DNA from: Chthonomonadales bacterium
Lineage (GTDB): Bacteria > Armatimonadota > Chthonomonadetes > Chthonomonadales > CAJBBX01
Assembly (NCBI GenBank): GCA_037443035.1
Contig: JBBIPC010000034.1
Span: 1-21,306 of the forward strand
DNA length: 21,306 nucleotides
Reading direction: 5' to 3'
Shown piece by piece: positions 6,001-12,000 of the stretch (positions are counted from its first letter, which is position 1; every line of letters begins with the position of its first letter). The position numbers were made by a program.

Positions 6001-9000
6001 TACTCCGGTATCACTCCGGTAGCGATCAACAGTGCGGATCTGACTGCGGGAGACGCCCTGGGAGCAGGCATTGACCCGCAGCCATACGACATCGCACCTG
6101 CCACGCGCACTACAGCGAACGTCGAGATTCAGCTTCCGGGCCAGCCAGGAGCGGGCATCACCAACGTGATCGGCAGAGTGAATCAGGTGCTCGCACCGTC
6201 GTTCCCCAGCGTCGCTCTGCTGGGGATCTTCCGCGACCAAGACGGAAACCCGATCACGAATCTTAACATTGCCAACCTCGAGGTGCTGGAGGACGGGATT
6301 CCTGTGGTCATCACGGACGTGCGAACGGTTGGGCAGGCTGGGCAACCTATCTCGGTATGTCTAGTACTGGACCGATCAGGGAGCATGGGCTACCAGGGCA
6401 ATGCGGATCTCGAACAGGCAGCCTCGACATTCGTCAACCTGATGGGTGCCAACGACGCAGGCGAGGTGGTGAACTTCTCCACCAGTGTGAGTGTGGACCA
6501 GCCGTTCACCACGGATAAGAGCCTCCTTCTCGCGGCCATTCAGGGGCGCTCAGCAGGTGGCAGCACGGCACTGTGGAGTGCGGCCTACCAAGGCGTCACC
6601 GACACTGCGCAACGGGGTGGCCGCATGGCGGTCTTGCTCATGACGGATGGCTATGACAACAGCAGCTATCATACGCGGGATCAGGTGATCGCTGCAGCTA
6701 ACGCCGGCGGCGTGCCGATCTTCACGATAGGACTGGGTTCCTCGGTGGATCCCGGTCTGGCAGAAGCAGCCAACCAAACAGGTGGCCTCGCCTTCGTCGC
6801 TCCAACATCGGCGGACCTGGACACGCTGTACCAGAAGATATCCGGACAGCTCAGTGGTCAGATGCAGATCACATTCATCAGCGCAGACCCGATCGCCCAT
6901 ACGCCGCCCAAACAACGGGTCCTGGAAATCCGGCTAAAGTACGGCTCGCTGCAGCAGACTACGACCGCATCATTCAGCATGTAGTCCGTAGCCGGACGGG
7001 AACAAGCGGCCACTTCCTTCTTGCTGGCGACGGCGGGGAGGAAGTGGCCGGTTCATTCAAGAAGCAGCCTCAGTCACAAGGGCGATGCATCGCCCTTCGA
7101 TGACACACGAAACCCACCTGCGTGGGCCGAGCCCATGCCAGGTCTGGGGTTTCTCCCTCCGCCGGAGGATTCCTCGTCGGGCGGACCTAAGTGAGGCGCG
7201 TTACAGCTTGAGGCGTTCTACTTCAGCCGCTCCCTCAGGGCTTGCTCCTTGGTTTCGTCCTTGAGGCGTCCCGTCTCGGTGAGGATGTGCGGCGTAACGA
7301 AGACAACGAGTTCCGAGTTGGTGCTGCTCGACTTCGTGCTCTGAAACAGCGCACCGAGGACGGGAATATCCCCCAGGATGGGCACTTTCGTTCGCGTCCG
7401 ATATTCCTGGCGCTGCGTCAGTCCTCCGATCATGATGGTCTCACCATCCTTCACGCGCACCGTGGTTTCTGCACGTCTCGTCGAGAGCACCGGCAGGCCG
7501 GTCTCGCGTTCCTGCTCGCTGATATTACTGACCTCTGGCTGCAGAGTGACAGTGATCTCCCCGTTGCCGCCAGTCCAAGGTCGCACTTGAAGCTTGACGC
7601 CAACGTCCACGCCTTGGATGTACTCCTGCTTCCCTCCGAAGGTGTTGACCGAGACCTTGATGAACTTGGTCTGGCCGATAAACAGGTCAGCCTGCTGGCC
7701 GTTCACTGCCGCCATGCGTGGGTTGGAGCGCACGCGAGCGCGTCCCGAGGCAACCAGTGCCCTGAGGTTGGCCTGGAACTCGGTGGGAAGCTGGCCGATG
7801 GTGCGATACGTGATGTCTCCAGTACCAGTGTCCATCGAAGCCGTCATCCGGTCATTCTGGAAGAAAGCTCCTAAGGCAGCATCGAGATCGCTCGTCGAGG
7901 CAACTTCGACTGCGAGCGCCTCGATCATGATCTGTGGCGGCGCGATGTCCACTTTGCCGAAGTCGGTGCGGATCTTGTCCAGCATGGGCGCCGGAGCCGT
8001 AACGACGACGGCATTCTGAGCCTCGTTCACATGGAGGAAGCTGTAGAGGAACGTCGGCAGGAGGCCGGATGCAGTCTGCGCCTTGATGTACTTCATCCGG
8101 AAGGATTCAGTGCTCGACAACCGGTAGGTGGCGAGATCCGACGGCGTGCCATCAGCGATCATGTAGACGCCGTCGTCAGTCTTGGCGTACGCCAAGCCAT
8201 AGCCGCTCGTAAGAGCGGTCAGCGTCTCATCCAGAGTGAGGTCCTCGAGCGTCACGGAGACTTCGCGGTCTTTCACGGTATCATCCGCGACCAGGCTGGC
8301 GCCTGTCTGCTGAGCCAGGCGCGCTAGGAGAGGCAGAAGCTTGGCACGCACCGCGTAGATGGAGATCTTGCCATCACGCACGACGACGTCCTCGCGAGTA
8401 CTGCCACCATTCGTCGAGCCAGAACCGGTGCCTGAGGGACGAGACGTGATGGTACGCTTCGAGTTCACCGTGATGACGATGCTCTGGCGATCGGTGCTCC
8501 GGTTGACATTCACGCTGGACGGCTCGTATAGACCGATGAGCATGACCACACCCACGCCCTCGACGGCGTCCTGGGGCACGGAGAGCTGCAGATAGCTGAC
8601 TGGGTACTTGCTCACGTCCAGGAACGTCTTGTTGATCAGTGACTTGGCGTTAGGGAACCGCATGGCGAGTCTGGTACTCTCGCCCCCATAGAAAGCGCTC
8701 CAGTTTCCGCCTTCAGGATCCCACTCGAGCACACCGTCGGCCTTGACAGTGATCTGGACGCCATTGCTGAGCTGCTGGCTCTCGATGGAGGTGATATTGC
8801 AGTAAGCCCGGTTCTGGCACGGTGCGGCCCATGGCAATAGCAGGATGCTCAGGATAGCGATGGGATGGCGAACTTGTCTCATTGGGGTGGCTCCGTCGGT
8901 CGTTCATCGAAGGACGCGGATCCCTCGACCGTTCTGACTGTCACGAAGATGGCCAGGCGGGATTCCCGTATCGCTCGGCCACGCGGGTAGGACCAAGAGC

Positions 9001-12000
9001 TGCCGAGCAGCGCTCGATTGCTTGCGTCTGTCTGGCTCATGTCGAGGCCGCCCACGAAGAGCGTCTCGCCTTCGTTCAGGCGAACGGTTGTCTCGGCGCT
9101 TCGCTGTGCGAGCGTAGGATTGCCAGTCACGCGCTCCGTCTCCACAACGTCGCTGGATTCGCTTCGCATGTGTGTGAGAATGACGCCGCGGCCGCTGGTC
9201 CACGGTGTCACTTCGAGCGTAGTACCGTAACGCACCGTCAGGATGCGCGTCTCGAGGCTATTGGTCCAGAAATCGAAGTACTGGGCGGCGATCTGCTTCG
9301 TCCTGCCAAGGAACAAGCGCGCCGTGCGCCCGTTGAGCACCACGGTCCGACTCTGAGAACGGAGGTGCACGCGCCCACGGGTCTCGAGTGCCCTCAGCGT
9401 CAGGGCCAGTTCCTGGGGCGTCGCGGATACCGACGAGAATACGATGTCGCTCATGTCGGCCAAGCTCGTAGTGCCCCCTTTCCAGATGAACCGTGCTCCG
9501 AGAGCTTGGATGAGGTCCGAGGTTGTCTGGAACTCCGCAACGGTAGTCGTTACCTCGACGGCAGGTACGGGCTGATCCAACTGCTCGAGGTCCCTCCGTA
9601 CCTTGTCCACCATCTCCGGGCTACCCACCACCGTCAGAGAGTTCCGACCTGGATCTACCTGCACGTGGGCAAGCAACAGATCCGGGAGACTGTCCCTTGC
9701 AGCACTGGCAGTGATGTAGCGCAGGGGGATCTCGGCGAACGAGCTGCCGTAGTACGCCGAGGTATCGCTGATGCTACTGTCCGCCAGGTAGTAGCCGCCA
9801 TCACGAGGTACTAGGGACGCCCCGCATGTCATGGCTATACAGCGCAGCGCTTCCTCCAGCGGAGCGATGTCCAACGACACGCTCACCGATCGGTCCAGGG
9901 TTCCTGCTGCCGTAATCGAGACACCTGCGGCCCGACCTATCTCCCGCATGAGGTCCTGGATGCCGATATCTCGCGCATAGATGCTGATCAGCCCTCGCTC
10001 GCTGGTAACCTGGAGCACGGCGCGGGCGGGATCTGGGACTCGTCTCGGAGGCGCTGGCGGAAGCGTTCGGCGGTCGCTCGTGACGAGGATGATGATCGCT
10101 CGTCGGTCCTGACTCTGCTCGATGCTGATGAACGGTGGGCTCTCGCCGGTGGCATCGAAGCTCCACCGGTCGCCCGGGAGCCGCACTTCCCGCGTCATGG
10201 CAGGCTTGTAGAGGACCACACGGATGTGCACCCCGATGCCCTCAACGGCCTCCGGCGGTACCGTGACCTCTACATGACTGACAGGGTAAATGCCGATGTT
10301 GGCAATACTACCCACCTGGGAGCGAGCGTTCCAGATGCGGATGGGGATCTCGGTGATGCGCTTGCCCATCTTGTCTCGCCGGCCCATGCGCGCAGCGTCC
10401 ACGTTGAAGAGATCCCTCGATTGAATGTCCGGTGCCATGAGGCCGTCGGCCTTGATCGTCACCTGGACGGCATTGGTGAGCCGTTTCGATTCCACCGCCG
10501 TGATGTTGCAGTAGGCACGCTGCATGTACACGCGACCCTGGCCACCAGCGATGGCCGGAAGCAACAAAACCATCGCCGCGGCTGCCCGGGCCAACGTGGA
10601 GATCACAGCGCGCATGCTACGGCCTGGCTTGCCGCCGATCATCGTCCTTCAGAATCCCTTCGTACTTCTTCTCATCTTCGGGCGGAAGGTGACCGGTCTG
10701 GGACAGGATGCGAGGTGTAACGAAGATGGCTAGCTCTGTTGTAGTCTCCCGGTTGTCAACAGAGCGAAACAAAGGACCGATTATAGGCAGATCGCCGAGG
10801 AGCGGGATCTTGGTGCGCGTGCGGCGAGACTCCTCCTGAAGGAGCCCTCCGATGATGACTGTCTCGCCGTCGCGGACTCTGACCGTCGTGTTGGCGCGAC
10901 GAGTGCTGCGGTCGGGAAGGCCGGTTGTAGGATCAGGAGCGCTCAGGACGCTGATCTCTGGCCTCACATCCACGATGATCTCGCCCTGGCCGCCTGTCCA
11001 TGGGGTCATGACGAGGCGTACTCCAGCGTCAATGGCATTGCTCTGGGTCATGCCCGCGTATTCATCCTCGCCCCGCGGCATGGCCACAGGCGTGCTGAGG
11101 TAGCGCTGCTTGCCGATAAAGATCGTGGCCCGCTGTCCGCTTACGGTCGCAATGCGCGGGCTTGCCTTGACCCTCGCCTTGCCGGCGGTGACGAGTGCTT
11201 TCAGATCAGCGCTGAACGAATTCGGCAGCGTCACGAGCGTGTGGTAGAAAACGGTGCCCGTACCCGCATCTACAGCCACCTGACGCGTGGCATTCGTCCA
11301 GTCCCACCGGAGACCGAACTCCTGCGCGCCCGTATCGGTGAACTCAACCATGAGCACTTCCAACAGTATCTGCGAGGCTGGAATGTCGAACTGCTTGATA
11401 TCCTCGGCGAACTTACGGAGCACGTCGGTGGGTGCCGAGAGAATGACAGAGTTCTGCTCCTGGTTGGTTTTCACGTGGTCCTGCAGGAACACCGGCAATA
11501 AGGACTTGGCGTCCGGCGCGAGGACGTATTGGGTGCTGATTGCCGCGATATCGCTCAGCAGATAGGATGAGGGGCTTCGGGGAATGCCCTCGCTGACCAT
11601 GAAGATGCCGTTGACTTCTTTGCACGACAGCCCATAGGCGGCGACGATGGCGGCCAGAATCTCCGTGGCCTTCTTGTTGACGAAGTGGACCGTTAGACTC
11701 CGTCGCACAGTGTCATCCACAATGACGCGCAGGCCGGTCTTCCTGGCAAGTGTTGTGAGAACGTCGTGGGCATCCACGCTCACGGCGTGAAGGGAGACGC
11801 CTTCAGGCGCAATCGTCACCTCTACGCTTGTGCGTTCGGCGCTTCCGGTTGCAGCTGCAGGGGGCGTATCGTCCCGAGCAAGAGCTGGCAGGGTACAAAT
11901 CAGAACTACGGTGGCGCACAGAATGCGCACGGCATCGGGCATGGGGACACCTCCGGAGAACTTGCGCACGGGGCGTAGCATTACTGTCAAGGCAGTATAC

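Follow-up and report, generated by a model that had tools for sequence, protein, structure and literature searches.

Three divergent secretin genes form a conserved cassette in Armatimonadota and may encode one hetero-oligomeric channel

Secretins serve as gates for type IV pili, for type II and type III secretion systems and for filamentous phages leaving the cell. Why does a bacterium of the Chthonomonadales encode three of them side by side, with no such machine next to them? The window analysed here, a stretch of 21,306 nucleotides of contig JBBIPC010000034.1, carries on one strand three tandem genes that we call A, B and C (Table 1). The first-pass annotation is confirmed: the three reading frames are intact and all score above the Pfam Secretin cut-off (PF00263; 139, 58 and 157 bits for A, B and C, cut-off 27.5), B matching only positions 1-130 of the 169 of the profile. 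The N3 profile (Secretin_N) gives a match above cut-off in B and weak ones in A and C, and AF2 models (mean pLDDT 87.6 for B and 84.6 for C) also place N3 directly before the barrel. Across the family, PF00263 is matched by 66/66 B and 66/66 C members, and N3 by 61/66 and 62/66 respectively. The reported pairwise BLASTP identities were re-obtained (40% over 408, 33% over 519 and 26% over 396 residues). With respect to the reported overlaps, the 4-bp one between B and C (ATGA) is present, whereas the 26-bp one between A and B exists only if translation of B starts at ATG 10642; the alternative ATG at 10615 lies one base past the stop codon of A and opens a product with a signal-peptide-like stretch. 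The genome contains six secretin-domain matches, and the other three secretins do sit in ordinary loci, with PilM, GspE/F/G/K and PilB/PilC/PilM-N genes.

Table 1. Features of the secretin cassette and its surroundings (positions on contig JBBIPC010000034.1)
Feature	Position	Strand	Description
Secretin A	10617..11942	-	441 aa; intact ORF; median pairwise identity 50%; signal peptide, N0 (STN-like), conserved linker, N3, secretin barrel; amphipathic loop intact; without AMIN
Secretin B	8879..10615	-	578 aa from ATG 10615 (587 aa from ATG 10642, ORF 10642-8879); signal peptide, AMIN, N0, N3, divergent barrel
AMIN-fold domain of B	10070..10513	-	residues about 35-182; structural matches
Shortened non-helical segment of B	8969..9046	-	at the loop position of A and C; coil residues 532-546, pLDDT 60-70
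Secretin C	7218..8882	-	554 aa; intact ORF; signal peptide, AMIN-like domain, N0, linker, N3, barrel with intact amphipathic loop, C-terminal helix
DUF4349 gene	12169..12813	-	upstream; in-frame TAG cuts it before hydrophobic helix; non-conserved neighbour
VWA-domain lipoprotein-like gene	5668..6984	+	convergent with cassette; non-conserved neighbour
Possible ECF-sigma-type promoter upstream of A	12045..12071	-	GAAC-N18-CGTC; loose match
ECF-type promoter match upstream of DUF4349 gene	12851..12880	-	AAC-N17-CGTC; read from sequence, below genome-scan threshold

The lack of secretion or pilus genes beside the cassette is not a peculiarity of this contig. BLASTP with the PilB, PilC, PilT, PilM and PilD proteins of this genome found no match (E<=1e-8) in the 946 kb that flank 102 loci, so that neither an ATPase nor a platform nor a peptidase accompanies the cassette there, and prepilin-motif genes occur at 9.5 per Mb in these flanks versus 14 per Mb in this genome. 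No neighbour is conserved outside single lineages; the VWA gene, previously described as divergent, is convergent with the cassette. Candidate partners elsewhere in the genome were rejected by co-distribution, each check being a single-protein or single-family query: the orphan PilB has close orthologues in cassette-free families and was not found in most cassette families, both orphan PilC occur in 10/10 genomes sampled from the family, including 6 that lack the cassette, DUF1559 pilins occur in 63/63 genomes with or without the cassette, and a tandem-STN protein behind an ECF sigma factor was rejected on the same grounds.

The tandem itself is widespread. A or C was matched in 122 of 401 genomes of the phylum (roughly 30% of the sample). 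Of these 122, 111 had matches at both levels, with the A profile matched two or more times, which points to joint presence; these genomes are related and the counts are not independent. The earlier figure of 9 of 67 Chthonomonadales genomes agrees with the 9 of 53 that we found in our sample of that order, the present genome excluded. The order A-B-C is present in 80 of 102 non-identical loci and in two more with one member broken or clipped; the remaining loci are mostly cut by contig ends, and in none of the 102 does A adjoin C without B. With start codons picked by a heuristic, the A-B spacing falls between -29 and +22 bp in 55 of 75 complete triads and the B-C spacing between -17 and +20 bp in 56 of them. 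The tandem exceeds chance by comparison with more distant secretins, 70 of whose 71 metagenome loci, many on short contigs, have a single secretin gene. Among hand-picked kin genomes, the 27 with the cassette have a median of 6 secretins and the 36 without it a median of 3. Loss, splitting and duplication have acted on the cassette as a unit. In genus g37, where C has been relocated, A and B are still adjacent in three of four genomes and B is present in the fourth, and genome G387 carries two whole cassettes plus a lone extra B; given the separate transcription of C in the former and the lone B in the latter, strict coupling is not required.

A, B and C together form one clade with FastTree support of 1.0, each subunit being monophyletic (0.988, 0.983 and 0.993 respectively) and the topology (A,(B,C)). 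The three gene trees are congruent, with no clash among strongly supported splits in 66 triads. Mutual information between the genes was uninformative in these triads (effective number 52), since the top pairs were clade-marking columns (Z 9.7-10.1 versus shuffled maxima of 7.3-10.2) and intra-chain pairs were likewise not contact-like. Comparative genomics thus strongly supports that A, B and C are one functional unit, as indicated by the fixed order, the close coupling, the congruent trees, the joint loss and duplication, the fact that B is never skipped and the absence of any trace of three orphan machines. The earlier proposal of co-assembly is to that extent supported; the shared ring is a step that we infer.

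What argues most for a shared ring is the state of B. A and C carry a helical amphipathic loop with the motif KxPxLGDxPxxGxLF, which is present in 62/66 A and 65/66 C and only in 20/66 B; it is absent in 46/66 B, including the one at this locus, and 38/66 B keep the loop at full length. About a third of B proteins thus retain a normal motif and could in principle form a ring alone. Passages of two papers call this loop the most conserved secretin sequence and propose that it is central to membrane insertion (PMC6155069, PMC6140923), and one of them attributes ring assembly to N3 contacts (PMC6140923). In B the C-terminal tail is short, the barrel is 25% conserved versus 50% in A and C, and N3 is its best conserved domain (40%, others 20-29%), whereas A is the most conserved of the three subunits. 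In 11 close pairs, dN/dS was 0.04-0.20 for A, 0.08-0.39 for B and 0.04-0.15 for C, and 0.07-0.58 for the final 230 residues of B. B is fast-evolving, yet it is retained under purifying selection. One shared ring is the most economical explanation, above all since many B proteins are missing the loop believed to drive insertion, and A, B and C are probably non-interchangeable subunits of a single hetero-oligomeric channel.

How might such a channel arise and work? An ancestral PilQ-like gene duplicated twice early in Armatimonadota to give (A,(B,C)), now kept as one coupled operon whose fixed order and spacing suggest co-transcription. After Sec export, the N3 domains and barrel strands would polymerise into one mixed ring, whose insertion into the outer membrane would fall to the amphipathic loops of A and C. 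B would be carried in by its neighbours, probably as a minority or seam subunit, and its loss of the loop would in consequence be tolerated. Through their AMIN domains, B and C may tie the ring to peptidoglycan, as expected from the family of these domains: the fold of B matches AmiC (4bin_A; Z 9.1, rmsd 3.1, 104 aligned) and the B2 domain of PilQ (4aqz; Z 8.9, rmsd 2.9, 100 aligned), and C seems to carry an AMIN-like domain, as suggested by a weak Pfam match in 8/66 members, a score of 0.89 to AMIN clusters in Atlas that serves as a lead, and homology to B. Since the ring would have no motor of its own, it might be an accessory gate that is turned on in many lineages through an ECF-type promoter and docks, by its N0 ring, on a type IV filament machine which the cell already possesses; this is the weakest step and, even granting co-assembly, less likely than not, a gated pore without a motor being the alternative to docking. 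The boldest version of this picture, an ancient, obligate, natural three-subunit secretin with an asymmetric A/B/C-ordered ring, B as a non-inserting seam or gate and no dedicated motor, has in our estimate slightly less than an even chance.

The promoter proposal comes from inspection of upstream sequences; here, the GAAC-N18-CGTC elements before A are taken to be -35 and -10 boxes of the ECF type, and transcription from the second match, which precedes the DUF4349 gene, could extend into the cassette. AAC-N16/18-CRTC occurs in 25 of 75 upstream regions, versus 14 on the reverse strand and 5.4±2.2 (maximum 13) in shuffles, for loci that are not independent and a pattern chosen by eye from the same upstream sequences in which it was counted. 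A genome scan with the motif returned 49 sites, none above threshold on this contig, and pointed to no obvious partner. A Gibbs search of the upstream regions found no motif, Rfam gave no match at gathering scores, and sigma-70 and terminator scans stayed at chance level.

Could A, B and C build three separate homomeric rings instead, serving one common process and hence co-regulated, co-inherited and jointly lost? A and C have every hallmark of the family and each seem complete enough for homo-rings, C can leave the operon, and a passage of PMC6946019 describes secretins as homo-oligomers. Three such channels would also show conserved order and joint loss. This reading is nevertheless unlikely, as it leaves unexplained both the repeated loss of the insertion loop in a B under purifying selection and the invariance of the order, and the flanks searched gave partner genes for none of the three channels. 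The low conservation of the B barrel relative to N3, together with the short tail and eroded loop, would also suit a pseudo-secretin, that is, a periplasmic assembly factor, nucleator or regulator acting via N3/N0 outside an inserted barrel made by A and C, mixed or separate. We find this quite improbable, since B has a complete, confidently modelled barrel fold, its last 230 residues are under the constraint given above, and some lineages keep a normal loop. It is very improbable that the paralogues work for separate orphan machines encoded elsewhere, an alternative already raised in the first-pass annotation, or that the three are interchangeable spares: the genome does contain an orphan PilB-like ATPase and two orphan PilC, besides three PilT-like genes and 54 ORFs with a prepilin motif, but in the queries above neither the orphan PilB nor the two PilC nor the DUF1559 pilins followed the distribution of the cassette, and spares should show single losses, of which none was seen. 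A recent tandem duplication with a decaying B, or an assembly artefact, would fit the degenerate look of B at this locus and is refuted by the recurrence of this triad in dozens of distant genomes, with monophyletic subunits under purifying selection.

If the three proteins do share one ring, they would break the rule that secretins are outer-membrane homo-oligomers of 12-15 subunits and provide a naturally occurring system for working out which subunit surfaces serve assembly, insertion and gating; since loop-bearing and loop-less B lineages coexist, they would allow a natural test of the proposal of loop-driven, BAM-independent insertion. In a poorly studied phylum, the cassette would also add a motor-less envelope module not described before. 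A search of the main text of mostly open-access papers returned no natural heteromeric secretin and no account of this cassette among the papers listed. A passage of PMC3230066 argues that mixing secretin subunits is harmful, mixed multimers being likely non-functional and avoided, and a passage of PMC4604470 reports mixed PulD multimers solely for length variants engineered from a single protein.

How does the cassette compare with known systems? The T4aP PilQ proteins (V. cholerae 6W6M, P. aeruginosa 6VE2, N. meningitidis 4AV2) share the domain order AMIN-N0-N3-secretin, with matching folds and profile matches of E 1e-29 to 1e-40. This architecture, dominant in T4aP according to a passage of PMC7545093, is present in B by fold and in C by weak matches and is absent in A; according to the same paper some PilQ also lack AMIN, like A. 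Unlike PilQ, the cassette comprises three paralogues rather than one gene, lacks the upstream pilMNOP, often has one member without the amphipathic loop and scores below the TIGR02515 cut-off (148, 56.8 and 142.5 bits for A, B and C against 284.35), and the genome has a separate pilM...pilQ locus of its own. With GspD/PulD of the T2SS the cassette proteins share the barrel and N3, as well as their best sequence matches, but they have a single N3 after N0 instead of N0-N1-N2-N3, score below the TIGR02517 cut-off (155, 54 and 169 bits against 351) and lie apart from any gsp genes, a full T2SS being encoded separately. Single short N0-N3-secretins next to WxLIP-like Ig proteins (metagenome loci L183, L185, L187, L191 and L199) show the minimal architecture of A, reach some of the highest scores outside the cassette against the A, B and C profiles and have no ATPase in the fetched flanks; unlike the cassette they are single genes, their partner genes were not found in this genome, and a sister position to the cassette has support of only 0.27 and 0.48. 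By analogy of mechanism, not homology, the nearest parallel is mycobacterial Mce1A-F, which according to a passage of 10.1101/2022.12.08.519548 is encoded in tandem and forms a heterohexamer, whereas MlaD, PqiB and LetB form homohexamers. The fold is unrelated, and the Mce heteromer, as described there, is solved and has an ABC transporter in its gene cluster, the cassette having neither; yet in both cases divergent paralogues lie in tandem, and secretins, like MCE rings, would have made one heteromeric and asymmetric channel within an otherwise homomeric family.

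The genes A, B and C (g02909, g02908 and g02907), together the cassette, form one ancient three-gene unit whose members are non-redundant and PilQ-like in their domains, with an eroded loop in B and no linked motor. As the first-pass annotation had stated, three secretin genes lie on one strand, here the minus strand; all three are intact, and the stated pairwise identities were reproduced (40% for A-C, 33% for B-C and 26% for A-B). The 26-bp A/B overlap that it reported holds if B starts at 10642, whereas the ATG at 10615 leaves a one-base gap, and the VWA gene, described there as divergent, is convergent with the cassette. 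All three proteins pass the Pfam Secretin cut-off, the match in B being limited to positions 1-130 of the 169 in the profile. A comprises signal peptide, N0, linker, N3 and barrel, in this order, and B and C carry one extra N-terminal domain each. In the AF2 model of B (mean pLDDT 87.6, from a 66-row alignment) this domain resembles AMIN of AmiC, with Z 9.1 and rmsd 3.1 over 104 residues, and also PilQ B2 (Z 8.9); Pfam AMIN is matched weakly in 8 of 66 C proteins. The pertinent passage of PMC7545093 gives AMIN-N0-N3-secretin as the prevailing domain order among type IVa PilQ proteins. Since A, B and C all score below the PilQ and GspD model cut-offs, they stand outside these equivalog or subfamily models, and their predicted function resembles that of PilQ-type secretins.

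Positions of the genes and operons discussed (window coordinates unless a contig, C, or a fetched locus, L, is named)
Feature	Position	Strand	Remark
VWA protein	5668-6984	+	lipoprotein-like N-terminus
Secretin C	8882-7218	-	intact, 554 aa
Secretin B	10642 or 10615 to 8879	-	intact; two candidate ATG starts
Secretin A	11942-10617	-	intact, 441 aa
Orphan PilB/PilC and PilT-like genes of the same genome	C11:26466-27824; C18:31536-32795; C22:35348-36532; C1:209440-212538
WxLIP/Ig + secretin operon (metagenomes)	L183:2763-7314; L185:2971-7089; L187:4478-7203; L191:3131-7131, 8172-12622; L199:2501-8148; L186

In the neighbouring DUF4349 gene (12070-12813) the reading frame is interrupted by a TAG at 12171-12169, beyond which it continues into a hydrophobic helix; this could reflect a nonsense change, read-through or a sequence error. 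Positions 4930-5430 encode a 166-aa secreted protein without Pfam match that resembles a small outer-membrane barrel. The genome has six secretin domains, cassette included, and the other three do lie in ordinary loci, as had been claimed: one in a pilM...pilQ-aroC locus, one in a complete T2SS and one in a further pilus locus. In the first of these, PilQ begins directly with N0 and a 192-aa STN-only gene lies just upstream of pilQ (L154:8966-9541, on contig C7).

When GTDB genomes were scanned with a pattern, 53 loci came up, and their titles refer to Armatimonadota lineages (Chthonomonadales, Fimbriimonadaceae, Armatimonadia, Zipacnadia, Abditibacteriales) or to an unclassified bacterium. 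A further 60 stretches were selected among the 150 matches listed when B was searched against the phylum, and 114 loci less 12 duplicates left 102. Because these were chosen for holding a member, the following counts measure linkage and not frequency: in 80 of the 102 the genes run A-B-C on a single strand. C is split in one further locus and A clipped in another; of the rest, 15 end at a contig boundary where the missing member would lie, four have C alone and one has a lone B. Among the 102, A never adjoins C without B. For 75 complete triads, with starts set by heuristic, the spacing in about three quarters suggests translational coupling. One member carries a frameshift or stop in L159, L085, L089 and L077, through assembly error or early decay. 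As to frequency, a search with the A profile (E<=1e-85), which detects A and C alike, matched 122 of 401 sampled phylum genomes, at least twice in 111. Presence is patchy even within genera: the window's genome has six secretins and that of a congener three, and among 63 hand-picked kin the median is six in the 27 cassette-positive and three in the 36 negative genomes. In genus g37, C stands alone, with A and B adjacent elsewhere in three of four genomes and B found in the fourth; another genome (G387) holds two whole cassettes and a lone B. More distant secretins differ: of their 71 metagenome loci, many on short contigs, 70 have a single secretin gene.

A recurring metagenome operon combines, in this order, genes for a secreted protein without Pfam family (about 235 aa), a protein of 430-600 aa with WxLIP/Ig-like domains and a single short secretin. 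No pilus ATPase was seen in its fetched flanks, and the operon was not found in the window's genome. Possibly it encodes an undescribed system of chaperone and secretin for exporting fibres or surface proteins.

In a FastTree phylogeny against 50%-cluster representatives, the cassette proteins group as a single clade (support 1.0) that branches as (A,(B,C)), and A, B and C are each monophyletic (0.988, 0.983 and 0.993, respectively); B was weakly supported when an earlier tree used just three outgroups. The three gene trees have 26-30 of 28-32 strong splits in common and zero conflicts, the B tree being 2 to 2.6 times as long as the others. In 11 close pairs dN/dS was 0.04-0.20 for A, 0.08-0.39 for B and 0.04-0.15 for C, so all three genes are under purifying selection.

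A KxPxLGDxPxxGxLF stretch is conserved in GspD and PilQ, and the segment aligned with it, hydrophobic and 35-36 residues long in all A and C, is what we take, from secretin structures, to be the amphipathic helical loop. The motif is kept in 62 of 66 A and 65 of 66 C, against 20 of 66 B, of which 28 have a shorter segment and 36 a weakly hydrophobic one (both out of the 66); the region is coil in the model of the window's B and helix in that of C. Passages of PMC6155069 and PMC6140923 describe the loop as the most conserved secretin sequence and propose it as central to BAM-independent insertion (PMC10499894 also treats the loop and pilotins), and PMC6140923 has ring assembly driven by N3 contacts. 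The best conserved part of B is N3. Keeping N3 and the barrel fold, often losing the membrane anchor and never dropped, B looks as one would expect of a mixed-ring subunit that depends on its partners, although 38 of 66 B have a full-length segment. We consider it probable, with some reserve, that A, B and C form one heteromeric ring, as the first-pass annotation proposed. Coevolution analysis across the cassette genes gave a signal equal to noise. Three homo-rings, all required together, are an unlikely alternative, and B as an assembly factor outside the barrel seems to us distinctly doubtful.

The statement that no ATPase or platform gene lies beside the cassette extends to 946 kb of flanks, which vary between lineages and hold no PilB, PilT, PilC, PilM or PilD homologue. 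That the products serve three orphan machines encoded elsewhere, or are spares, is very improbable; as to the orphan machines, the candidate partners do not track the cassette: orphan PilB has close orthologues in cassette-lacking families and was not found in most cassette-bearing ones, both orphan PilC occur in 10 of 10 sampled family genomes, six of them cassette-negative, and DUF1559 pilins are present in 63 of 63 genomes. Decay or artefact can practically be dismissed. The orphan genes of this genome (a PilB-like ATPase without MshEN, two PilC, adjacent to each other in several relatives, and three tandem PilT-like genes) could possibly form a dispersed machine for many DUF1559-type pilins, independent of the cassette. 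Its 54 prepilin-motif ORFs, mostly of DUF1559 type, are scattered singly; relatives have up to several hundred first-look candidates.

An AAC-N16/18-CRTC motif, presumably an ECF-sigma promoter, was found upstream of A in 25 of 75 triads, against 5.4 +- 2.2 in shuffled sequences and 14 on the reverse strand; its distance from the start is often 100-120 bases. The pattern was picked by eye from the same sequences, so the ECF promoter is only a lead. An ECF sigma gene of the genome is also preceded by the motif (AAC/CGTC; L254:4077-6485, contig C3), and about 850 bp downstream lies a gene for a secreted protein with STN/N0-like domains and a zinc ribbon, with clear orthologues in 10 of 10 sampled family genomes and weak matches only elsewhere. 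A 296-aa secreted protein of unassigned family (L255, C8:100868-101959) lies behind a strong ECF-type promoter match.

In the mixed-ring reading, A, B and C would be co-transcribed and assemble into one ring, which AMIN domains may anchor to the wall. PilB-family ATPases occur in all 401 genomes, so that the cassette could serve a type IV filament machine already in the cell as its accessory gate. Given a mixed ring, we put this role forward only tentatively; the main alternative is a motor-free gated pore.

The cassette is a real, ancient three-secretin unit, apparently so far undescribed. Denise et al. mention T2SS in Armatimonadetes; the cassette does not appear in the 12 of 19 matching places covered (PMC6668835). 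No natural heteromeric secretin was found in full-text searches of the main texts of openly accessible papers. In the relevant passages, PMC6946019 presents secretins as homo-oligomers with 12-15 copies, PMC3230066 argues that the formation of mixed multimers is avoided, and PMC4604470 reports mixed PulD rings for engineered variants. The closest analogy to the proposed A/B/C ring is the Mce1A-F heterohexamer (10.1101/2022.12.08.519548).
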